IMG/VR virus record: IMGVR_UViG_2721755712_000001
Direction: 5' to 3' (one strand)
DNA from: a virus
Lineage: Duplodnaviria > Heunggongvirae > Uroviricota > Caudoviricetes
DNA length: 64,000 nucleotides
Both the position numbers and the translations under genes were made by a program. The notes below the pieces were generated by a model, which worked only from the letters and a program-made list of their open reading frames with translations, had not been told where the DNA came from and ran no database searches. Each line of letters starts with the position of its first letter. Position 1 is the stretch's first letter. Below are positions 4,712-16,749 of this stretch, piece after piece.

Positions 4712-4895
4712 GTGTTTTTACCTTTATGGTTTTTTTGATTTTGTCATTGGGGAAGCCTACGAACTTCCCATACATCGAAATCGCAACTTCTTTTGCTGAT
4801 TGGTGACAATCGGGCTTGTCTGGACATACCAGACAAGCCTTACCAGTTTCAGAAGCAGCGATAAGAGAGCCGAAACATCCTTTACGCACGATCAA
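4686..4895 (-). CDS. small Cys-rich protein, possible zinc ribbon
   Basis: 69-aa ORF overlapping the polymerase start; C-x2-C...C-x4-C spacing; coupled between CobS-like and polymerase genes. Confidence 0.35.
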   Translation of the reverse strand: MIVRKGCFGSLIAASETGKACLVCPDKPDCHQSAKEVAISMYGKFVGFPNDKIKKTIKVKTHESTDGSN

Positions 4896-6127
4896 CCAAA
4901 TATTTTTTGAACAACTTCACGAGCCGCTTGTGCAGAAGCTGAAGGGAGTTTGTTAATGAAAGAACGCTCAATACCTGTCACAAAGTCGCCTCGCATCATT
5001 CCAATCTTGGCCGACAACAAAAGTTCACGAGGGCCAATTGGCTGACTGATAAGGTGCTCTTCGTATCCATCGCGAACGATACCGGCAAACTTAACCATCT
5101 TTTCTGCGTATTCATCCACGATACCGGCATTTATCAACATGTTGATCTCTGCCTCTTTGCTCATGTATTTCACATTCGAAACGATGCCAAAACGCGAAAA
5201 GTTCGCGGCGTTCTGGATGTTTGTACCCTGGTACAAGCCGGTTTCATCACCAGATCCGTTCGTGTTGCCAGTGCCAATGAAAGCAAACCGTTCATGCGGA
5301 GTAATGCGACGCCATTCTGGAGTCGCCTCTTTGATGACCAACGCTTCACCTTCCAGCACTGGCTGATACACGCCAAGAATCTGTGGAAACGCAAAGTCGT
5401 ATTCATCCGCGAGGTAAACCCAGCCATGCTTCATTGCGAGCGCAAGCAAGCCAGGCTCGAAATACGTAGAGCCATCACGCGCCAGAATTTGCCCCGTAAC
5501 ATGTGCCTCTTCCATTGATGCTGTATGTTGGGCACGGATCAACGGACGATTGAGCAAAGCACATAGTTGTGTAGGCAATGACGATTTGCCTGTTCCTGCA
5601 TGACCCCACAAATAGCCAGGTATGCCAAGTTCAAGCATCATGAAAATGTCTTTGATCAGTTCGAAGTCGCCATATACGTAGCCCTTCTTCACTTCTGGAA
5701 CGAACTCTGGAAACGGCGTATTGACGTTGACGCTAACCATGAGCGGCGTCCCACGTTTTGTTCCGAGTTCTTTCACCGTTACATTTAGCAGTTCGTGAGC
5801 TGCGACCAGATCTGTCTTGTACTCAACTGTGCCTGTGTAGCCTGGGCTACTGGTCACGCCAGATGATTTGGCCATTTCGCTTTTTTGCTCGGCACGTTTA
5901 GCTTGAATTGCATCAAGTGCCTTTTTCGATAGCGTTGGCTCATCTGGAAACTGTGTTGTGTACATTTTCAGTACGGTGTCAGGATCGGCATCTTTTACTG
6001 ACTCAGGAATGCCCTCGCAATTACCATTGGCTACATGGGACTTAAAATAGTGAAATGATTTTCCGCACCACTTGCAAACAAGGTAATCAGAAGGATTTTT
6101 TTCATTTTGCAGTGCAGTAGTAGTCAT
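4892..6127 (-). CDS. AAA+ ATPase, CobS/MoxR-like, with N-terminal Cys cluster
   Basis: Walker A GHAGTGKS, Walker B VYLADEYD; N-terminal CKWCGKSFHY...C motif; paired with a downstream vWA protein as in CobS/CobT pairs. Confidence 0.65.
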   Translation of the reverse strand: MTTTALQNEKNPSDYLVCKWCGKSFHYFKSHVANGNCEGIPESVKDADPDTVLKMYTTQFPDEPTLSKKALDAIQAKRAEQKSEMAKSSGVTSSPGYTGTVEYKTDLVAAHELLNVTVKELGTKRGTPLMVSVNVNTPFPEFVPEVKKGYVYGDFELIKDIFMMLELGIPGYLWGHAGTGKSSLPTQLCALLNRPLIRAQHTASMEEAHVTGQILARDGSTYFEPGLLALAMKHGWVYLADEYDFAFPQILGVYQPVLEGEALVIKEATPEWRRITPHERFAFIGTGNTNGSGDETGLYQGTNIQNAANFSRFGIVSNVKYMSKEAEINMLINAGIVDEYAEKMVKFAGIVRDGYEEHLISQPIGPRELLLSAKIGMMRGDFVTGIERSFINKLPSASAQAAREVVQKIFG

Positions 6128-6222
6128 GCGTTTTTCCTTTGTTTTCTAATGAGCGTTCAACTTCTTATATAAATATATCATTATCTATCGTAAGTGGTTA
6201 CTTATCGTTAAGGCTGTTTTGT

Positions 6223-8331
6223 TCACTTTAAAATGATACGAGATAGTTCAGTAACTACAGATGAACCAAGACTATCAACGCTCGTTACCAGGGCATGATT
6301 TGAGTAAAATCTCTCCGGTGCGTCAGTCATGATGCCAATTGCCATCAAATCAATGTCAGTCTGCGTTTCAATTTGCTTCGCAACCGAACGCAAATGAGCG
6401 TCAAAACCTCTCCCAACAGCCCACGGCTCGCCATCGCTCAGAACAAGCATGATCTTCCTGTCCTCCATGCGACCGGAAAATAACGATGCAAGGCTGGCTA
6501 TGCTTTCACCATCCACGTTATTAAGAAGTGGGAATGTGTAGCCTACGCACCCCATACGTGAGCGAACTTCGCGAGAATTTACCTTTTCATTCCAATTTTT
6601 GATGATAGGTAGCATTAAAGATTCAAAGCGAGAGAACTCATACTTGACAGCCTTAAGTTCTCCTGCCGCCATATGACTACCAAATGTAGTGAAGCCTGTG
6701 ATAATGTTGGGAACATTTATTCGATCAAGGGCATCGGCGATGGTATATGCACTTGCAAGAGCCAATTGTATCGTTATACCCCTCATTGAACCTGATAAAT
6801 CAATCACTTGTTGAACACAGGCGTTAACGGCTTTAGATTCTTCTTTTTTACGAAACACGCGATCATCATTCATTGCTAATCTGTAGATACTAGAACCATG
6901 AATGCGCCCCCGACGCTGGCCCGGTATAAACTGAACTCTGTTTCTGCTTGCTATTGCTCGCTCCAGGTCTTTTGCCAGCGTCGACGAAACACCTGACGAA
7001 AGATGCTTTTCAATATATTTGTCGAAGAGCTGGTTGCCTTCAGGAACGATGCGATAGCGGCTGATTGGACATCCTCCTAAATCAATATCGGAGAATGTTT
7101 TAATAAGCCGTTTGATATGGGCTTCTGCCTGATCAATCGAGCCGATGAAGTCGTATGAGCGATTGTATGGCCTGTATTCGCTTTTCGAGCTTTCTGTTAA
7201 CTCGCTTTTAATCGTTTCGGATAGAGCATCTTCTGTCATGCCTCCGACTTCATCTTCTATGCTATCCAGCTCCTCTAAAGCCTCTTCCAGACTCATTTTT
7301 GACGGAGTTGGGATATCTGAAGAGCCGTCTTCTGTCGTTTTTCTTTTTTCGTGGTCAGCGGTTAATGATTCTGACGCCGCGTTATCAGAAGCATCAGAAT
7401 CTGATACCTCTTTATCATTTTCTGTATCATCGAATATTGTTTCTGATGATTCAGATAATTCTGAATCATCACTGTTGTTATTATCATGTTTGTGCTTACT
7501 ATGTGATTCTGATTTGATAGATTTGTGGTTATCTAACGATGAAGATGTCTCATGATCTTCGTTGTCTTCATTGTTTTCTCCAGAGGCATCCGTCTGGTCA
7601 GCGTCTGAAGGATCGGAAGTTTTTCCCGGAGCTGACTCCTTACCATTGCTTTCACTTTCAGTGTCTTTGAGGATCTTAGCTATGGTCGCAGCCACCTTTA
7701 CACAATCCTCGGTGCAAGACATGTTACGCACGGCCACATCGATACCATGTTCTTTTAATAATGAAATTGGTTTCTCAATGACAGGCCAGTATTCATCCAT
7801 GAAATCTACGAACGGTGCTTGGCCATCCCAGGCTCTTACAACCGGACAGAGAAAGAAGTTTAGAAAAAGCGCGCGCTGATCTTTGCCACAATAAGCAATA
7901 GCCTCTGAAGCCTTTGGTTTAAAGACTTTTTCGATTATAAGGCGCTGAGTTGCCATCAGATTACGTCTTGTTCCGTTAAAGACCTGACCCATTTTTCGCT
8001 CGATGAACACGTCTTCTAAGGCATTCCATAGCGACCAGGAAGGAACGCGTCCTTTTTCTCTCATTTTGTTGGACACACGAATATCGGTAAACAAAATGTG
8101 AGCAACCTCATGATCGAGAAATCCGCGCACAGCATTCATCAATGCCGGTGTTGCGTTATCCGGGATTGATGGGATGTTTACGAGAATTGGCTCTCCATCA
8201 TCGTTATAGCGTACATAAGCGTCGTCCCCTCGTTCTGCAACAGGGATGTTTTTACCTGAAAGGAGAGCGACTACTCGTTTTACACTGTCACGGAAGTCCT
8301 GAACCTCTTTGATGGAACGTTTTTTAGACAT
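6223..8331 (-). CDS. CobT-like von Willebrand factor A protein with acidic Ser/Asp/Glu-rich linker
   Basis: C-terminal MIDAS-like motif VIDLSGSM; central low-complexity acidic region; N-terminal HEVAH (HExxH) motif. Confidence 0.6.
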   Translation of the reverse strand: MSKKRSIKEVQDFRDSVKRVVALLSGKNIPVAERGDDAYVRYNDDGEPILVNIPSIPDNATPALMNAVRGFLDHEVAHILFTDIRVSNKMREKGRVPSWSLWNALEDVFIERKMGQVFNGTRRNLMATQRLIIEKVFKPKASEAIAYCGKDQRALFLNFFLCPVVRAWDGQAPFVDFMDEYWPVIEKPISLLKEHGIDVAVRNMSCTEDCVKVAATIAKILKDTESESNGKESAPGKTSDPSDADQTDASGENNEDNEDHETSSSLDNHKSIKSESHSKHKHDNNNSDDSELSESSETIFDDTENDKEVSDSDASDNAASESLTADHEKRKTTEDGSSDIPTPSKMSLEEALEELDSIEDEVGGMTEDALSETIKSELTESSKSEYRPYNRSYDFIGSIDQAEAHIKRLIKTFSDIDLGGCPISRYRIVPEGNQLFDKYIEKHLSSGVSSTLAKDLERAIASRNRVQFIPGQRRGRIHGSSIYRLAMNDDRVFRKKEESKAVNACVQQVIDLSGSMRGITIQLALASAYTIADALDRINVPNIITGFTTFGSHMAAGELKAVKYEFSRFESLMLPIIKNWNEKVNSREVRSRMGCVGYTFPLLNNVDGESIASLASLFSGRMEDRKIMLVLSDGEPWAVGRGFDAHLRSVAKQIETQTDIDLMAIGIMTDAPERFYSNHALVTSVDSLGSSVVTELSRIILK

Positions 8332-8893: not shown

Positions 8894-9280
8894 ATGTCTG
8901 ATAACAAGATTGAATTTATAGAAAGTCGCTACGCTGCTTTTATCGCAGGGTTGATTGAATCCTCACCTATGAGCCAGGCCCAGATAGCCAAAACAATTGG
9001 GTATAAAAACGCCAACAACCTTTCTTTAATTAAAAGCGGCAAAATTCCTTTGCCTATCGATAAGGTTCGTCCGCTGGCGCTGGCACTGGGTATTGAGCCA
9101 AGTCGTCTTATGATGATGGTGCTGGAAGAACGCCAACCCGAACTCGCAGCATTTTTATACAAAGAAGGCACTGCTCCTCTTAACGAGGACGAAAAACAGG
9201 TTCTTGCTGCATATAACGAGCGATTCGGTAAAGAGAAAGGCGCATCACAAAAGGTTGTTGAGGCCATAAAGTCTCTATGA
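8894..9280 (+). CDS. XRE-type helix-turn-helix transcriptional regulator
   Basis: 128 aa; segment SQAQIAKTIGYKNANNLSLIKSGK fits an HTH with flanking hydrophobic core; convergent with the recombinase gene. Confidence 0.55.
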   Translation: MSDNKIEFIESRYAAFIAGLIESSPMSQAQIAKTIGYKNANNLSLIKSGKIPLPIDKVRPLALALGIEPSRLMMMVLEERQPELAAFLYKEGTAPLNEDEKQVLAAYNERFGKEKGASQKVVEAIKSL

Positions 9281-10378
9281 AAAATTTACACGAATAAGCT
9301 CTGTTGATAGACGATCTCCCTTAAATTTGTGGTCAATTTCGTCTAAATCCGGTTGCTCTACGATTGATGCGATGTACGTCGAGAAACTTTCTAAGGCGTC
9401 TCGCATCTCGTCCATATAATCGTGCCGGTCGTAGACCCGATCTATCCCCTCAAGACTGTGGTTCATGATTTTACGTGATACCTCCTGGCTTATGCCTAAT
9501 GCTGGGAAGTAACTACGCGCAGTACGGCGCAAATCTCGGGGTGTAAATGGCTCAAGCTCCATCAGTTCTGGTCGTTCCAGAATACGACGTAATGCCTGGG
9601 CTATTGCCACTTTAGACATAGGAAGGTCTTTCCCGATTTTTTTATTCGAAGGCACGAGCCACTGGCTGTCTTTACCATATTCGAACAACTCTTCAATACA
9701 AGTGCGCATTAATGAGCTTAAAGGCAGAGAATGCTCACGGGCAGATTTGTTCCTCTTGCCTTGATTCCAAACCCCACGCTTAAGATTGAACTCACTTTTT
9801 TTAGCCCGCAGTACTTCGTCAGGTCGTCTTGCGGATACAAGACATAGCCTGGCCGCCCATTTTGTACCAGCACACACATTGAAGTAGTCCCATATATTCC
9901 AGAACACCCATACCTCTGCGTCGGTCAGCTTCCGCTCGCGAGGTGTGGGCTTTGCGCCACCGGCAACTTTGTTAAGTGACATATCGTTTAACGGTGACAC
10001 GTCTATCATCCCCTGGAAGGCGCACCAGCTAAGGAACTGCTTCATCAGAGAGAAAACGCGGCGGCCCATAACAATTTTGCCATCCAGTATTAGTGGGTTG
10101 ACCAGTTGGTTCACCATGAACCTATTAATGTCACTTACTTTTACATCGGCAATGTGCGGCAAAACATGTATCAAAATACAATGAACAGCGATCTCTGGCC
10201 GACGTCTGGTTATCAGCAGAGATAAGCGAGTGAATAACATGAATGCGTCCGAGAATCTCATGTCATTGCTGACCTGGGAGATCATAACGGCCTGCATTTG
10301 AGATGCTCTTTCGAGATACTCTATCGCCTCTTTTGAGGTGTTCTCCGCAGCGCGTGCTCTGTCAAAGCTATTTTTCAT
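9275..10378 (-). CDS. tyrosine recombinase (integrase/resolvase family)
   Basis: 367 aa; C-terminal region with conserved Arg (LRRTARSYF), His (IMNHSL) and a Tyr near RVYDRHDY, in the R-H-R-Y arrangement of tyrosine recombinases. Confidence 0.65.
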   Translation of the reverse strand: MKNSFDRARAAENTSKEAIEYLERASQMQAVMISQVSNDMRFSDAFMLFTRLSLLITRRRPEIAVHCILIHVLPHIADVKVSDINRFMVNQLVNPLILDGKIVMGRRVFSLMKQFLSWCAFQGMIDVSPLNDMSLNKVAGGAKPTPRERKLTDAEVWVFWNIWDYFNVCAGTKWAARLCLVSARRPDEVLRAKKSEFNLKRGVWNQGKRNKSAREHSLPLSSLMRTCIEELFEYGKDSQWLVPSNKKIGKDLPMSKVAIAQALRRILERPELMELEPFTPRDLRRTARSYFPALGISQEVSRKIMNHSLEGIDRVYDRHDYMDEMRDALESFSTYIASIVEQPDLDEIDHKFKGDRLSTELIRVNFS

Positions 10379-10551
10379 ATGACAATCACCGAGTTACGCC
10401 GATGCACTGTATAAGTAAACAGTATATTAGGCATAGATTCTTATAGGATCAAGAGTAAAAGTAACTCATTTTCAGCAATGATTCCATACATAGTAGGTAT
10501 GGAATCATTTAAGGGAGGAATTTAAATTCTGAGGCGTTATTAATATGATTG

Positions 10552-10962
10552 TTAAGGGTTAGTGAGAGCTTGAAATGCGGCCGCGTAGGCAGCGATATCG
10601 ACCATAATTTTTGGATCTTTCGCGTACTGATGTGCGTTGTTAGGGAAGATTGCCAATAGGCTATACACATCTTGGAAATGTGCATGTTGACTGTAAACGA
10701 GTGCACGGTCGCTTGTGCAATTGAATCTGCTGCGGCTGCTGGTTCGTTCTTGCTTCGTGAACAAGAGATGAACGTGATAGACGCGGGAGGACACGATAGC
10801 ACCAGGAGCCGTATACGGGCCATCTTTGCCGAATATGGCTGGGTACATGCCTTGTTTAAACGACTTGAAATCGTTGAGTAACGTAATCTCTAAGTCAGGC
10901 TTTATATCGAAGGTCGGCTTTAAAAATTGGGCGTAACTATCACTGTTCCATGTGATCTTCAT
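10552..10962 (-). CDS. hypothetical protein
   Basis: 136-aa ORF, co-oriented and adjacent to the 10972..11580 ORF. Confidence 0.35.
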   Translation of the reverse strand: MKITWNSDSYAQFLKPTFDIKPDLEITLLNDFKSFKQGMYPAIFGKDGPYTAPGAIVSSRVYHVHLLFTKQERTSSRSRFNCTSDRALVYSQHAHFQDVYSLLAIFPNNAHQYAKDPKIMVDIAAYAAAFQALTNP

Positions 10963-10971
10963 CGTTCAACC

Positions 10972-11580
10972 TCAATGGAATGAGAAGTTGGCGAAGACGT
11001 CCTCATCAATGAGGCCAGTCTGCGATTCGATGACGTCTACGTCGTTAAAACACTGATTTAAAATCAATAGCAGATCAGAGATAGCTAAACGATACTCAGT
11101 TACAGAATCGCTCAAGCGTTTCAAATATGGATGAGGTTGCTCAGAGTCGCGAATCAACTTGTTAACGAATCCCTCCAAACCACGAATGGTCAGGTCAACG
11201 TTCTTCAGTTCTTCGTAACGACTTTCACCGAAGTTGCTGCGAATCTTTTCCGCTTTCCATCCAGAGATGGCATGGGCTAAGCGAACGTGTTTCGCCGTCA
11301 ATTCTGCGAGCTTGCTTTCAATCTTTGCCAGCTGTGCCGCATCGCGGTTTTCTTGAACAGGAATAGCCGCAGTGCTCACATAGGTTTGTGTTTTGAATCC
11401 TGTGAATTTCGCAGAGGGCTTCATCGTGCCACGGAAGCGTCGATATCCACGCGGTTCAATAAAATCACGCCCAGATTTAGCTGTAGGCTTTGCGTTTGAA
11501 AAGCGTGAAGCGTTAGAGGTCACAGTAGCAAGGGCATTGCTAATGACACTCATATCTTCTAGGCAATTTTCTAAACGCAT
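10972..11580 (-). CDS. hypothetical protein
   Basis: 202-aa ORF; no motif recognised. Confidence 0.35.
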   Translation of the reverse strand: MRLENCLEDMSVISNALATVTSNASRFSNAKPTAKSGRDFIEPRGYRRFRGTMKPSAKFTGFKTQTYVSTAAIPVQENRDAAQLAKIESKLAELTAKHVRLAHAISGWKAEKIRSNFGESRYEELKNVDLTIRGLEGFVNKLIRDSEQPHPYLKRLSDSVTEYRLAISDLLLILNQCFNDVDVIESQTGLIDEDVFANFSFH

Positions 11581-11675
11581 AAAACCTCTTAACTGCTCAA
11601 TGGCTCGTAACTAAGTGTACGCTGTGCTGATGAAAGCTACAAATAATAAATGGCCCCAAAAGGAGCCGTATTGTA

Positions 11676-11921
11676 TTACAGAGTGCTCGCAAAAGCAGCA
11701 AATTCTGTGTATCCGCCAATCGGCTGGCCATCGATCAGCACCTGGGGGATCGTCTCTACCGGTTTACCAACAATTTCGCTAAGTTTTTCCTTCTCGATAC
11801 CGGCAGTGGTGATGTCGATGTACTCATAATCACCGTAGCCATGTCCCTTTAGTTGCTTCGCCAGCTCGACCGCACGTTTGCAGTATGAGCAGTTATCTCG
11901 TCCGTAGATAGTGATCGTCAT
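11676..11921 (-). CDS. glutaredoxin-like protein (NrdH/Grx fold)
   Basis: 81 aa; active-site CSYC near the N-terminus and C-terminal IPQVLIDGQPIGGY typical of glutaredoxins. Confidence 0.8.
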   Translation of the reverse strand: MTITIYGRDNCSYCKRAVELAKQLKGHGYGDYEYIDITTAGIEKEKLSEIVGKPVETIPQVLIDGQPIGGYTEFAAFASTL

Positions 11922-12094
11922 AACTTAACAAATACCTTTATAAATATTGATTCGAACATATCAGACTATACTACAAACAGATTTTTTTGATAAGTATGTA
12001 GTAACTTATTGGTTAACTAGTAAACAATTGAAGTGATTACGACAATAGATTACAGTAAGGATTGCCTTGAAATGTACATTTTATAGAGGTTTTA

Positions 12095-13003
12095 ATGATT
12101 GGTAAGTTGTCTGATTCTTTGATTGAAAATAAATACAACGAATTTAGAGAAGAAATATCTTTACTTTTTGACTATTTAAATCAGATAAATGATACAACAA
12201 AGAAAAATATAAAACGTCTTCTTAAAGAAGTGGAGTATGCACAGAATCCAGATACTATTATTAATATTAATGAAACTATTAAGATTAAGTGTGGCACAAC
12301 GTTAGCTCGCCATTTATGTTCAAACCCATATACAGGTTCAACATTAGAGATAGGTAACAGCGCCATTGATTTAGAAGAAAAGATAAGATTGTGTAATACT
12401 TTGAAAAATAAACAATATCAGTGGGTTATTACTGAAGCCTATGAGTTACTGGAAGACTATATTGAGGCAATATATGTCTATACTGTATGTGTTCGAAATG
12501 ATTTATGGTCCTCAAGTGATTTTGGTAAGGTTGAAGATGATGAAATTGGGAAAAGGGAAGTTTATTACAGATTATTAAAAGCAAAAAGTAACCCATCGAA
12601 AAAAATAACTAAAATTTTCAGAAATAAAATACCTGGCTTCAAAGAGATAGAAACAAACAACAAGATTGGCAAAAACTATCGCTTTAACATCAAGCTAATT
12701 GAACTACTAAGACATACAATAGTACACAATAGTGGACGATTCAATGATACAGAAAAATTTATAAATAAGGTTTTAGATGAATCTGAAATAAACGGTAAGA
12801 AAAGAGTTATTGGAGAAAGAGCTGTTAGAAGTTACATTACTAAAGTGCAAGAAGATGATATTGTGATGCTCTTAGAAAGACCATCTGAAATTTTAGGTTC
12901 TTTTGGTGGGTATTTTAACAGAGCAAAATTTTTACTAAGTGATATTTTAGAATACTCACTAATCATTAAAGAAGAACTAAAATCATATCTAGGCAATCAT
13001 TAA
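12095..13003 (+). CDS. AT-rich hypothetical protein with HEPN-like R-x4-H motif (possible abortive-infection-type protein)
   Basis: 302 aa; strongly AT-rich and Lys/Asn/Ile-rich relative to neighbours; motif LLRHTIVHNSG (R-x4-H); own terminator. Confidence 0.3.
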   Translation: MIGKLSDSLIENKYNEFREEISLLFDYLNQINDTTKKNIKRLLKEVEYAQNPDTIININETIKIKCGTTLARHLCSNPYTGSTLEIGNSAIDLEEKIRLCNTLKNKQYQWVITEAYELLEDYIEAIYVYTVCVRNDLWSSSDFGKVEDDEIGKREVYYRLLKAKSNPSKKITKIFRNKIPGFKEIETNNKIGKNYRFNIKLIELLRHTIVHNSGRFNDTEKFINKVLDESEINGKKRVIGERAVRSYITKVQEDDIVMLLERPSEILGSFGGYFNRAKFLLSDILEYSLIIKEELKSYLGNH

Positions 13004-13004
13004 C

Positions 13005-13034
13005 AAAAAAGGGGCCGAAGCCCCTTTGGATTTT
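13005..13034 (+). terminator. Rho-independent terminator
   Basis: A-tract, GGGGC-CGAA-GCCCC hairpin, then TTTGGATTTT, immediately after the 12095..13003 stop. Confidence 0.75.
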
Positions 13035-13183
13035 GCGCTTAAAAAAGTGTTGCTAGGATGTTAGCAAGCTATATGGTTAAGAACGTCTGCCGTAATTGTC
13101 TATCACAGCGTTGAGCGGTCTGGTTTATGTTAGCGGAGTCTTAATCGAGTTGATTAAAAGGCCAAACCGCTCAACGCTGTGTC

Positions 13184-13270
13184 TGGCGGAGAGTAATGGA
13201 ATCGAACCATCATCGTTTGCACAATGGGACGGTTTTCAAGACCGCTTGAGCACCATGCTCCCTACTCTCC
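13184..13270 (-). tRNA. tRNA-Ser (anticodon UGA), long variable arm
   Basis: reverse complement folds with acceptor GGAGAGT/ACTCTCC, anticodon loop CUUGAAA, T-loop GGTTCGATTCC, encoded GCCA 3' end. Confidence 0.8.
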
Positions 13271-13590
13271 AGCTATTGTGATGGTCGGTACTGAACTCCG
13301 ACACAGGGTTGTAGCAAGCCCCGCAAAGCGCGCACTACTGTAGTTGCGGCACATCAGCCTGTGCATTCATCACAACGGTAAGATCACTACCTTTCGACCA
13401 GTCATTGTGCACATGAACGACGATTAACCGTAATGATATTATCGTTGTGTTGTGAAGCCAGATGCTTATCTTCTGGTTGCTTCAAAGAGCTGCACTTCCT
13501 CACAACGGTAAGAGCACTGGTCTGACTCTATCGATTTACGGCCTTGTGGGTCAGTATCGCCGATTCGCCCAATGCTCTTACCTGTTGTGT

Positions 13591-13666
13591 TGGTGCCGGT
13601 TAACGGACTTGAACCGCTGGCCATTCGCTTACAAAGCGACTGCTCTACCAACTGAGCTAAACCGGC
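13591..13666 (-). tRNA. tRNA-Thr (anticodon UGU)
   Basis: acceptor GCCGGTT/AACCGGC, D-arm GCTCAGTTGGTAGAGC, anticodon loop UUUGUAA, T-loop GGTTCAAGTCC, encoded CCA. Confidence 0.75.
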
Positions 13667-13670
13667 AATT

Positions 13671-13757
13671 TGGTGGGGAGTGATGGAGTCGAACCACCCG
13701 AGTCGCCATGACAGTAGATTTACAGTCTACACCGCTACCTCTACGGACTAACTCCCC
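13671..13757 (-). tRNA. tRNA-Tyr (anticodon GUA), long variable arm
   Basis: acceptor GGGGAGT/ACTCCCC, anticodon stem GTAGA/TCTAC with loop CUGUAAA, T-loop GGTTCGACTCC, encoded CCA. Confidence 0.8.
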
Positions 13758-13762
13758 TAAAT

Positions 13763-13837
13763 TGGCGATGGTGGGTGGATTCGAACCACCGACCAGTTGG
13801 TTAACAGCCAACTGCTCTACCGCTGAGCTACACCATC
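13763..13837 (-). tRNA. tRNA-Asn (anticodon GUU)
   Basis: acceptor GATGGTG/CACCATC, D-arm GCTCAGCGGTAGAGC, anticodon stem GTTGG/CCAAC with loop CUGUUAA, T-loop GGTTCGAATCC, encoded CCA. Confidence 0.8.
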
Positions 13838-14615
13838 AATTCAGCACTGCCAGTATTTATTACTCAACAGTGCCAATCGCGACGGTTTAGTTTCTGCCAG
13901 GAAACGCACCGCTACTTGCACTTTTCGTTAGTGCCAGACGCTTTCGACTTCGCTCAATAGTAGAAGGCAAAATCTTTAAGTAGATGATGTTTCTGAGGAC
14001 AGCACCTACTTTGTAATTTATACAATGTGATGTATGGAATCATTTGTTGTGAAAACAGGCACCAATGGCAACAGTGGTTAAACCTACACAACAATCCCGT
14101 CTTCACAACGTTGAGGCCACTACTCCGATTGAATGTTTGCCCAACATGTTACATATCAACGCTCGCCGGTATCTCTGTGAATAGAACCTTAGAATTGATA
14201 AAAATGTAATGGCCTCAACGTTGTGTGCTGGCTAACCATACCAGCCGGGCTACGTCGCCGCTTTTTAACCCAGTATAAACGACATAATTGAACAAAATGA
14301 CGTAACAGGATGGGCGGTCAGTGGCTAAGAATCCGGGAGTCATATGGAGTTGAAAATATACCAACCGCCCATTCTGTTACTTCATCGGAGGGAACATGAA
14401 TGTTCCCTCCTGCGTTCTGCAATCACACTCGCTCAGTGTGTCCCATTTCGGTAACGAGGCTGGAAACTGACCTCGCTGGTGTTGGGCTTATTAGGCTACT
14501 GCCAGATAGACTTCTTCGTTTGCACTTGTATTTAAGTTCAAACAGTCGCGTCTCAACGAAAACAAAGTCATCTTATACATAAAAGATAAGTAAGTAAATA
14601 CTTATCATGATGTTT

Positions 14616-14906
14616 TTATTCGGTTGTGACTTTTTTGATCAAGGCCACTCTACGACTAGGTGTTCTTGTGATGGTGGCAGTGAATCGTTTCGCCTGGATA
14701 GTAATGGTTTCGTTCTCCTTAAGTTGCCCGTAGCGAGTTTCCACCAGGGTGCCAAGACGCCACAGACCATCATCGATACGTTTATGACTAGCAAATTTTA
14801 TCAGCAACAGTTTTACGACTAACTGACCTACGTAAAAGGCGAATGCGACTCCGGCCGCTAAGAAATAGGTGGCCAACCACCAGTCCCAAGAAGTTAAATT
14901 GCTCAT
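14616..14906 (-). CDS. small membrane protein
   Basis: 96 aa; N-terminal hydrophobic segment WWLATYFLAAGVAFAFYVGQLVV consistent with one or two TM helices. Confidence 0.4.
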   Translation of the reverse strand: MSNLTSWDWWLATYFLAAGVAFAFYVGQLVVKLLLIKFASHKRIDDGLWRLGTLVETRYGQLKENETITIQAKRFTATITRTPSRRVALIKKVTTE

Positions 14907-15051
14907 TTTCTAACCTTTGTTTCATGAACTACCCGATACACACGCTTTCCGATGCACAGTGTTTTGGTTTTAAGTTCCTGCTTAATTAAATCACGACAGA
15001 TGCCGAAGCCAATAAGGAAGCCACCCATAAAAGCTAATGAGATGTATGGAA

Positions 15052-15267
15052 TCATTTTAACGCTCCTGATTCTACTAACCGCTGTAGCAATACTTTCCCT
15101 TTATCAGTTAACTGGTAGTTGGCCGAACACCACGTTTCAGAAACGTTTGCAACCAACCCTAACCGCTCTAACTTAGCCCGCGTTTTAGGCTTCCAGTACT
15201 CAGGGAACTCCGGCCACTTACTGATTTCATGAAGCGTTTCCTTCTCCCGCTTACTTAATACGATCAT
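15052..15267 (-). CDS. hypothetical small protein
   Basis: 71-aa ORF upstream of the ligase gene in the same orientation. Confidence 0.35.
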   Translation of the reverse strand: MIVLSKREKETLHEISKWPEFPEYWKPKTRAKLERLGLVANVSETWCSANYQLTDKGKVLLQRLVESGALK

Positions 15268-15426
15268 CCTTAATCTCCTTCACTGTGTGGGTTATTTCTA
15301 CAATGCGATAAATACGTCCGCGTCGTTCTATAACACCGCTTTTAATGTAGTCATTGATGCAACTGGACATCACAACAATACCGATTAAAAAACCAACCGC
15401 TAAAAATGCAATCATCCAGCCGAGCA

Positions 15427-16749
15427 TCATTCTTTATCTCCGATTCGATCTTCTGTATCGCGTAAGCAACGCGGCCATTTCAGTCGTGGGTGGCGTAAGC
15501 TGCCGTCCGGTGTTTTCTCGTGACAATGAACCTCGACAATACGACCACGGTACTTCTCTTTGTTGTTCCAGATCTCGTCCAGATATTTATGCTTAATGCC
15601 GCTCGCACGAACGATGACGCCGTTTTCAAGACGAATAACAATTTTTCCAAGTGTGTTGGCAAAACCAGAGTCCGGGTCGCCCGGCTCAAAGTCGATAATT
15701 TCACCATCTTCTGAATCTTCGTCTTTTAACTTCCACCAGCTGCGGGTACGTTTAAACTCGTAAACAGAGTTCGGATCTTTGCCCATCTCCCCTTCTTCGT
15801 TATCGTCCAGGCGTTTCATGAAGCGTTCGATGAAGTCTTCGTGGCTATGGATGATGTAGAACGGATGTAGGTGAATGTCTTGCGCGTAGTCTTCACTGCG
15901 ATCGTTTTTGAACAACGCCACGAGAATAGCCAGGCGCTCTTTCAGCTTCATACCTGTCTTTGCATACTCTTTGGATTTAGCCTGTGCCCGCCATTCCGGT
16001 AGGAAGAAGTCGAAAACATGATAAATAGCGCCAATTGCCTGCACGTTCTTTTTGCGCAATGCAGATACGGACTGGTTAAATGAACCGGCTGTTCCTTCAC
16101 CATCGAAGAAGATGTGTTTGTGGCCTGAAAGTTTGCCTAATTCGAGCATGGCTGGCTTTAGGTGATCGAGAGACGTGATTGGATTACCAGTACGAGAAAG
16201 GAAGTTCACCTCTTCCTCGTCAACAATAACCTCACAAATTACTCGCAAACCATCGAGCTTAAGACTGCCAATCATCGGCCATTTTGCTTTAGGATTTGGC
16301 TTGAAGGGGTATTTGTCGCCTTTTTCTTTATACGGTGACGCCAGCTGCACCTCGAATTTCGGAATGGGATTTTCAAAAACCTTGTTGCATAGGCTAATCC
16401 CAACACCTGCTTTCGGGTCTTTTAAGAGGAAACGACGGAACACGTCCTGCCCATCGGCGCACATTGACGCCACGATAGACTCAACAGCAGCTATTGCTGC
16501 GTTCCCCGTTAGCTCGCGAGAGGCCAGCTTATTCAGTACATCAATGGCTTTTTCGTCACTTGGGATGGACTCACTAAGCGGCTCTGCCACTTTGTATTTC
16601 TTTACCCCAAAACGGATGAAAGGGTTGAGCATCAATGAAACCATGCTTTGCTCGAAGTCATCCATGTTGGCCAATGCCTCTTTTTTTGCATTGGTTCCCA
16701 TAGCTTTCATTTCGTCCAGCTTATGCTTAAGTGCGATCAACTTTTTCAT
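15427..16749 (-). CDS. ATP-dependent DNA ligase
   Basis: 440 aa; adenylation motif I SLKLDGLRVICE (KxDG) followed by a nucleotidyltransferase-like core. Confidence 0.8.
   Translation of the reverse strand: MKKLIALKHKLDEMKAMGTNAKKEALANMDDFEQSMVSLMLNPFIRFGVKKYKVAEPLSESIPSDEKAIDVLNKLASRELTGNAAIAAVESIVASMCADGQDVFRRFLLKDPKAGVGISLCNKVFENPIPKFEVQLASPYKEKGDKYPFKPNPKAKWPMIGSLKLDGLRVICEVIVDEEEVNFLSRTGNPITSLDHLKPAMLELGKLSGHKHIFFDGEGTAGSFNQSVSALRKKNVQAIGAIYHVFDFFLPEWRAQAKSKEYAKTGMKLKERLAILVALFKNDRSEDYAQDIHLHPFYIIHSHEDFIERFMKRLDDNEEGEMGKDPNSVYEFKRTRSWWKLKDEDSEDGEIIDFEPGDPDSGFANTLGKIVIRLENGVIVRASGIKHKYLDEIWNNKEKYRGRIVEVHCHEKTPDGSLRHPRLKWPRCLRDTEDRIGDKE

Follow-up and report, generated by a model that had tools for sequence, protein, structure and literature searches.

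The 64,000-nucleotide stretch of viral DNA analyzed here (IMG/VR record IMGVR_UViG_2721755712_000001, Caudoviricetes; hereafter the window) contains an A+T-rich gene of 302 codons that lies between a glutaredoxin gene and a tRNA-Ser gene. We propose, with moderate confidence and from sequence conservation together with a predicted structure, that this open reading frame (ORF) represents a family of stand-alone RNases of the HEPN type that is new and unannotated. Under this reading, phage-plasmids, prophages, and genomic islands carry its members as exchangeable cargo, and the product of the ORF most likely acts as a triggered effector of abortive infection or exclusion, much like HepS or AbiD/F. 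The ORF is a genuine gene that evolves under purifying selection, and it is optional cargo in the slot between glutaredoxin and tRNA-Ser. Below, we discuss the conserved residues and predicted fold that suggest a HEPN-type enzyme, the observations that weigh against it, and the alternative roles that the genomic setting of the gene brings to mind.

Conservation of the R-x4-H motif across a widespread family

An initial annotation of the window had singled out the sequence RHTIVH in the ORF protein as the R-x4-H signature of HEPN RNases. The hexapeptide is present at residues 206-211, and no other R-x4-6-H occurs in the protein. Chance would be expected to yield 0.21 copies of R-x4-H here, so the motif alone is weak evidence; it rises above chance because R206 and H211 are invariant across 137 relatives that share a mean column identity of 24%. 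The gene and the two conserved blocks discussed here are located as follows.

12095..13003, + strand: the ORF, 302 residues, ATG start; WP_001755525.1 in RefSeq plasmids
12407..12475, + strand: helix-2 block N105-Y127 (NKQYQW..EAYE..ED..Y), including E117 at nucleotides 12443-12445
12710..12727, + strand: RHTIVH, residues 206-211, with the predicted catalytic arginine and histidine

The family is large and uniform in length. A word-indexed homolog search with the single protein returned only eight clusters, and the same type of search with a 137-sequence profile yielded close relatives only among the matches listed. An exhaustive hidden Markov model (HMM) search with a six-sequence profile recovered 453 clusters (50% identity) with a cutoff of E<=1e-3, or 351 when the cutoff was E<=1e-10; their members are, with few exceptions, 285-320 residues long and matched end to end. 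Pfam, NCBIfam, and PADLOC hold no model for the family; the ORF protein corresponds over its full length to PHROG 35492, a group of unknown function, and all 10 of the 10 family clusters whose names were inspected are called ‘hypothetical protein’. Literature searches on WP_001755525, and on HEPN combined with phage-plasmid, found nothing specific.

In the alignment of the 137 members, E117 is invariant alongside R206 and H211. Position 207 is histidine in 132 sequences and asparagine in five, with nothing else observed, and the asparagine variant gives the canonical RNxxxH form. Several other positions are nearly fixed, including V210 (135 of 137), N105 and W110 (134 each), and Y127 (133). 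Also conserved at 90% or more are Q107, W138, E186, N189, H207, and G214. E117, which the model described below places in helix 2, is a candidate for the active site's auxiliary acidic residue.

Predicted fold and relationship to HEPN domains

HEPN domains are up-down four-helix bundles that often carry an insert separating helix 2 from helix 3; a polar residue (N, D, or H) follows the motif arginine, and a conserved acidic residue sits in helix 2, next to the motif, often in the form E-x3-[KR] (PMC3710099). The AlphaFold2 model of the ORF protein had a predicted local distance difference test (pLDDT) score of 76 when built with six sequences; with the 137-sequence alignment, pLDDT rose to 94 and the predicted template modeling (pTM) score was 0.90. 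Core helices are modeled at residues 2-50, 93-133, 195-212, and 276-300, and a beta-hairpin occupies residues 69-91. Helix 93-133 bears N105, E117, and Y127. Between core helices 2 and 3 lies an insert (residues 134-194) of four short helices at 140-187, and an alpha/beta insert spans residues 213-275, with its elements at 219-257. RHTIVH forms the C-terminal end of the modeled helix 195-212, and the near-invariant G214 comes after it.

These features have clear counterparts in HEPN domains. R-x4-6-H is conserved in every aligned sequence, the residue after the arginine is always polar, and in the predicted model the motif ends core helix 3 while a helical insert separates helices 2 and 3. It is from this combination of motif and modeled topology that we infer HEPN homology. 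The earlier identification of RHTIVH as a HEPN signature gains from the invariance of the motif, the polar residue at position 207, and the predicted topology, but acquires no sequence or profile link to known HEPN, abortive-infection (Abi), or defense families. A similar division applies to the structure prediction that had been suggested as a check for a HEPN or Abi fold: it produced a HEPN-like four-helix topology, but a Foldseek search of the PDB with the AlphaFold2 model gave no significant match.

Beyond homology, we infer RNase chemistry, oligomerization, triggering, and a defense phenotype, which may be connected as follows. A metal-independent RNase site would lie on the four-helix bundle, formed by R206 and H211, which close helix 3, by H207, and probably by E117 in helix 2. 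The site would span the interface between subunits of a homo-oligomer, which is how other HEPN enzymes build theirs. The elaborations of the bundle, namely the 50-residue N-terminal helix, the beta-hairpin at 69-91, and the inserts at 134-194 and 213-275, could keep the enzyme inactive and sense a trigger. The gene would act as a self-contained moron cassette, having an upstream region of its own as well as a terminator, and would be expressed from the resident plasmid prophage. Upon infection by a competing phage or mobile element, the enzyme would cleave cellular RNA (tRNA, mRNA, or rRNA), and this cleavage would abort the infection and thereby protect the plasmid-carrying lineage.

Several observations weigh against a HEPN assignment. 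The position four residues after E117 is aspartate in 85 of the 137 sequences, so the usual E-x3-[KR] form is absent, and the closeness of E117 to R206 and H211 is presumed from the model. Pfam scans with the query, the family consensus, and the 137 members gave chance-level matches only. PADLOC-DB v2 returned 0 families for the protein and the family consensus, and NCBIfam had no match for the ORF protein. PDB sequence searches with the protein and with the family profile yielded coiled-coil noise such as SNAP-25, and no HEPN protein. No member of the family is known to have RNase activity, to be toxic, or to confer a phage phenotype.

Comparison with DUF3644 points the same way. DUF3644 is the only Pfam family matched by the ORF protein (E = 2.9), and three of the 137 members match it as well, the best with E = 0.0065. 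The family has been classed as HEPN (PMC3710099) and is the one HEPN family covered by our profile-to-profile comparison, for which its type protein EC042_2821 (WP_001222856.1; L058 43189-44502), a 36-sequence alignment, and both full and trimmed hhalign runs were used. The resulting hhalign probability was below 1% (P ~0.07-0.09), and real, shuffled, and reversed sequences of the ORF family scored alike against the DUF3644 HMM. Two of the three hhalign runs set lRHiIVH over fRDqAVH in register. Homology to DUF3644 was rejected as chance because of the low hhalign probability and the equal performance of the shuffled and reversed controls. A relationship to tyrosine recombinases or Ndc10-like proteins, for which LRHTIVH resembles the H-x-LRH box and five members weakly match NDC10_II, was rejected on the predicted fold.

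The alternative that survives best, although we consider it unlikely, is that the ORF encodes a helical bundle outside the HEPN superfamily that functions as an enzyme or in binding, with E117, R206, H207, and H211 forming some other site. Such a site could be a metal site made of His-x3-His and a glutamate on a four-helix bundle, or it could bind phosphate or a nucleotide; in either case, the protein could still serve as conflict cargo. The metal site is the less easily reconciled with the alignment, as the exclusive exchange of histidine for asparagine at position 207 speaks against a His-His pair of ligands.

An exchangeable cargo slot in SSU5-like phage-plasmids

The window is an SSU5-like phage-plasmid. 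The region around the ORF is 98% identical to ‘Escherichia phage CMS-2020a’ (CP053388), and its flanks are common to phage Cyrano and other SSU5-like phage-plasmids of ~105-115 kb. The exact protein, WP_001755525.1, occurs as a ‘hypothetical protein’ on many E. coli plasmids. The features that delimit the slot and its cargo are listed below.

11676..11921, - strand: GrxA-family glutaredoxin (grx; Pfam Glutaredoxin, E = 5.9e-11), left boundary of the slot
11960..12094, + strand: cassette-specific upstream region, marked by loss of identity to plasmid L059, which carries a 59% allele
13008..13027, no strand assigned: G+C-rich hairpin AAAGGGGC-CGAA-GCCCCTTT, preceded by an A-run and followed by a T-run
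13184..13270, - strand: tRNA-Ser(UGA), right boundary of the slot
after tRNA-Ser, to 13837, - strand: tRNA-Thr(UGU), tRNA-Tyr(GUA), and tRNA-Asn(GUU)

A 1301-nucleotide query made up of the ORF and ~200 nucleotides of each flank was compared with 5426 complete E. coli genomes. A plasmid match was found in 244 of them, and in 29 of these 244 at least 80% of the query was matched; among the records listed, full-length matches have either at least 99% or ~75% nucleotide identity. Most of the related plasmids among these matches are without the gene, which is therefore dispensable for their life cycle. The same slot holds alleles with 56-59% protein identity in plasmids of E. coli and E. marmotae, and alleles with 38-42% identity in Klebsiella plasmids, including phage pJN2-26.

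The boundaries of the exchanged unit can be read from a comparison with plasmid L059. Identity is 99% at 11786-11885, within grx, and 62% at 11986-12083; it stays at 54-77% over ~11960-13000 and returns to 92-100% from the terminator on. A divergent block thus lies between conserved flanks, indicating that the exchanged unit is the ORF with its own upstream region. The ratio of nonsynonymous to synonymous substitution rates (dN/dS) against the 59% allele is 0.22, with dS saturated at 1.2. This pattern points to old, functional alleles that have been shuffled by recombination in the conserved flanks.

Other plasmids carry different genes in the same place. In the E. coli phage-plasmids L035 (902-2164; 420 residues, GC 0.31) and L037 (1061-2293; 410 residues, GC 0.38), the slot is occupied by genes in the same orientation that are unrelated to the ORF and encode proteins with hydrophobic N-terminal segments. 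Neither protein has a Pfam or PADLOC match, and both genes are candidates for further unknown conflict genes. In L038 and Cyrano, the slot is empty beyond a Gp49-family gene. The glutaredoxin is annotated at the same position in every plasmid compared.

The composition and orientation of the ORF are as the initial annotation had described them. In 400-nucleotide windows, its GC fraction is 0.285-0.318 (~0.29 overall) versus 0.43-0.50 on both flanks, and the protein is rich in isoleucine, lysine, leucine, glutamate, and asparagine (I 34, K 31, L 31, E 30, N 25). The gene is transcribed against its neighbors, diverging from grx and converging with the four tRNAs, all of which are on the - strand. 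A Shine-Dalgarno sequence, GAGG (12086-12089), lies 5 nucleotides 5' of the ATG. A weak sigma-70-like candidate, chosen by eye, consists of TTGAAG (12028-12033), a 17-nucleotide spacer, and TACAGT (12051-12056), with 8/12 matches; a promoter scan at a threshold of 9/12 reported no + strand promoter upstream of the ORF.

The strong terminator that had been assigned to the ORF as its own exists, but it appears to be shared. The hairpin at 13008-13027 has a folding energy of -17.2 kcal/mol in a 56-nucleotide context (z = -3.0) and is 92-100% conserved across plasmids bearing different cargo alleles. The terminator scan assigns the hairpin to the - strand, on which its T-run has no break; the + strand tail is TTTGGATTTT. 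It is probably a bidirectional terminator that serves both the ORF and the convergent tRNA-Ser unit.

Genomic context of relatives

A pattern scan limited to one genome per species placed relatives of the ORF at 31 loci in Gamma-, Beta-, Delta-, and Epsilonproteobacteria, Bacteroidota, Spirochaetota, and Nitrospirota. At almost every locus, the relative is far AT-richer than its surroundings (for example, GC 0.31 versus 0.60 in L012 and 0.31 versus 0.57 in L023). Most relatives reside in bacterial chromosomes or islands, and only 13 loci are on viral contigs, mostly of the same phage-plasmids.

The genes next to these relatives are diverse. Among 87 proteins encoded within two genes of a relative at 29 loci, no family occurs more than twice, and close co-directional neighbors range from an MmeI-type restriction-modification enzyme to an HNH protein, an integrase, DUF58/VWA proteins, and an IS200-like transposase. 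This heterogeneity, with no recurrent family, indicates that the gene is autonomous, and a conserved partner or antitoxin was rejected because none was found at the 29 loci. Strong PADLOC matches occur in at least 12 of the 87 flanking proteins, as a raw count. They comprise PDC-S15, PD-Lambda-1, PD-T7-5, PDC-S13, Avs4, AbiEi, a type I S subunit, a type IIG restriction-modification enzyme, PD-T7-1, PD-Lambda-2, and PtuA (twice). ToxN, HigB, integrases, and a transposase also flank relatives. The defense-cargo setting proposed in the initial annotation is therefore borne out to the extent that the gene is swappable and its relatives sit among defense and mobile-element genes.

Two aspects of these contexts weigh on the other side. 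About 85% of the flanking genes are not defense genes, and the 308-residue homolog on the E. coli chromosome (L040-L043 8001-8927; 32% identity, GC 0.30), which lies between tam/yneE and uxaB, is a lone islet among core metabolic and housekeeping genes. In some E. coli strains, the yneE-like gene beside this homolog is not called.

A phage-borne relative illustrates the cargo setting. In a P2-like prophage of Undibacterium jejuense, the homolog lies between gpR-gpS and gpV (L026 5734-9334; L056 4734-8334), and in P2 the S-V interval is the variable Z/fun region. The same block contains two genes without a Pfam family (318 and 194 residues) and a reverse-oriented gene for a Dam-type methylase.

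A further relative resides on a plasmid with an anti-phage phenotype. Plasmid p2 of Klebsiella pneumoniae Kp1604 (NZ_CP085480.1) carries a 38% homolog (WP_161424757.1) in the same grx-phoH slot (L060 2480-3394). Curing of p2 increased the propagation of three phages as well as plasmid uptake (PMC8969562), effects that the authors ascribe to a restriction-modification system that was not mapped (PMC8969562). For the homolog, this phenotype is a circumstantial hint of an anti-phage role.

Two metagenome-assembled genomes contain neighbors of separate interest. In one from Burkholderiaceae (L029 2582-3082), a 166-residue ORF bearing the canonical motif R-N-K-L-I-H and matching no Pfam family lies 13 nucleotides upstream of the homolog in the same direction, and the two may be HEPN-like genes in tandem. 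In one from Noviherbaspirillum (L025 3703-5649), a VWA/CobT-like gene lies upstream of the homolog and recalls the pair of CobT-related and AAA ATPase genes of SSU5-like plasmids (window 4892-8331; L039 1-2432).

Plasmid prophages frequently carry addiction modules, and it is conceivable, albeit improbable, that the ORF encodes the toxin of such a module, paired with an unrecognized antitoxin or an RNA antitoxin or held in check by autoinhibition, which would stabilize the phage-plasmid and have no role in phage defense. The closest solved structures are HEPN toxins of HEPN-MNT modules (minimal nucleotidyltransferase, MNT), and a YafO-family toxin gene lies one slot away in the window. These parallels are offset by the missing adjacent partner, as no neighboring gene is conserved and the 173-nucleotide gap upstream of the ORF contains no ORF of at least 40 residues. 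MNT-associated HEPN toxins are also less than half as large as this protein with its large inserts, and most related plasmids manage without the gene.

Comparison with characterized HEPN systems

The ORF family shares several features with the HEPN superfamily of RNases: an invariant R-x4-H with a polar H/N after the arginine, placement of this motif where core helix 3 gives way to the loop that leads to helix 4, an invariant acidic residue within helix 2, additional sequence that separates helix 2 from helix 3, and occurrence as AT-rich mobile cargo near restriction-modification or Abi genes. It differs in having no sequence or profile similarity to the Pfam HEPN families (clan CL0291) and no E-x3-[KR], and the ORF protein stands apart through its very long core helices (41-49 residues) and three large inserts that include beta elements.

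Among individual systems, HepS of the Gifsy-1 prophage (PDB 9oik) is a single-protein HEPN abortive-infection system that acts as a triggered anticodon nuclease (PMC13043305). HepS has 218 residues and is encoded by an integrated prophage, whereas the ORF protein has 302 residues and is encoded by a plasmid prophage; the two share no sequence similarity. The lactococcal proteins AbiD, AbiD1, and AbiF (Abi_2, PF07751) are all-alpha, ~300-350 residues long, and possess an R-N-x-x-x-H-type motif (in part from Table 1 of PMC3710099). They resemble the ORF in size, all-alpha character, stand-alone organization, AT-richness, and location on plasmids or phages. Membership of the ORF in this group is unsupported, as neither Abi_2 (Pfam) nor AbiD (PADLOC) gave a match at E<=10.

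MNT-associated HEPN toxins (DUF86; PDB 5yep, 7ae2, 8xdj, 1jog, 1ylm) have 130-145 residues and always occur with a nucleotidyltransferase antitoxin. In contrast, the ORF protein has no partner gene and over 150 extra residues, and a minimal nucleotidyltransferase antitoxin gene is not a recurrent neighbor at the 29 loci. The resemblance of the family to DUF3644/EC042_2821 (PF12358) is at chance level.

If the HEPN assignment is correct, the family would constitute a widespread single-gene HEPN-type immunity or conflict protein, with 453 clusters spread over five or more bacterial phyla. A known mechanism would thereby gain a family, and no concept would be overturned. Because the family is absent from Pfam, NCBIfam, PADLOC v2, and PHROG annotation, current defense-annotation pipelines miss it. 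In clinical E. coli and Klebsiella, SSU5-like phage-plasmids have a slot, defined by the arrangement of GrxA, cargo, and tRNA-Ser, whose contents can be swapped by recombination, and the alternative occupants of this slot are equally uncharacterized. Naturally occurring plasmids that are near-isogenic but differ in slot contents, such as pRM9131-1 with the ORF, WEM25 p1 (L038) with an empty slot, and pLR4-105k (L035) with the 420-residue gene, make a convenient experimental system, and one homolog-bearing plasmid, Kp1604 p2, already has an unexplained anti-phage phenotype.

Neighboring genes and the tRNA cluster

The initial annotation had drawn attention to the position of the ORF beside a tRNA cluster as one that often holds cargo. 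The cargo part of this suggestion agrees with the exchangeable slot, but no sign of functional coupling to the tRNAs was found. In the plasmids compared, the set of four tRNAs does not change between slots that hold the ORF, an unrelated gene, or nothing, and a tRNA lies within 6 kb of the relative at only two of 29 loci. Functional coupling between the ORF and the tRNA cluster was rejected on these grounds, as tRNA content is independent of the slot occupant and relatives are rarely near tRNAs.

The same facts bear on the suggestion, which we regard as improbable to a similar degree as an addiction toxin, that the gene serves the phage-plasmid life cycle or counter-defense rather than host defense. 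The product could be an RNase that acts on the host tRNA or mRNA pool while plasmid tRNAs substitute, a factor that processes the tRNA-cluster transcript, or an anti-restriction factor. The ORF adjoins and converges on the tRNA cluster, with which it has a terminator in common, and HEPN anticodon nucleases are established, as are phage tRNAs as countermeasures. The N-terminal helix also weakly matches PHROG 4452, ‘anti-restriction nuclease’ (E = 0.0027, residues 20-60), but this match is borderline, falls in a Lys/Glu/Asn-rich helix, and was judged compositional. The constancy of the four tRNAs, the scarcity of tRNAs near relatives, the mostly chromosomal or island location of those relatives, and the absence of the gene from most related plasmids all speak against a life-cycle role. 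Least likely of all, and by our estimate very improbable, is a self-contained sensor-effector HEPN anticodon nuclease in which the N-terminal helix, beta-hairpin, and inserts would sense a phage protein while the adjacent plasmid tRNAs (Ser-UGA, Thr-UGU, Tyr-GUA, and Asn-GUU), as cleavage-resistant or replacement copies, would protect the carrier, allowing it to direct the nuclease at competitors and still finish its lytic cycle.

On the other side of grx, the window contains a gene for a YafO-family type II toxin (10552-10962, - strand; Pfam E = 5.3e-22), located between the integrase gene (9275-10378) and grx, and just upstream of it a gene for a 202-residue protein of unknown family (10972-11580, - strand). 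In plasmids L035, L036, and L059, the integrase gene directly adjoins grx, and both the YafO-family toxin gene and the 202-residue gene are missing. The interval 10552-11580 thus makes up a second variable slot for cargo, separated from the first by a single gene.

An Rfam scan of 9000-16000 detected the four tRNAs only. For tRNA-Ser(UGA), located by Rfam at 13187-13271, the best model is tRNA-Sec (44.8 bits versus a gathering threshold of 47), while ARAGORN assigns tRNA-Ser; the tRNA-Sec-like score is presumably due only to the long variable arm of tRNA-Ser. The 320-nucleotide spacer between tRNA-Ser and tRNA-Thr (13271-13590), in which Rfam found nothing, varies among plasmids, with 34% identity and gaps at ~13283-13349 and 100% identity further on. 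In plasmid L037, the tRNA-Thr position (2785-2917) is annotated as a 133-nucleotide ‘tRNA-OTHER’.

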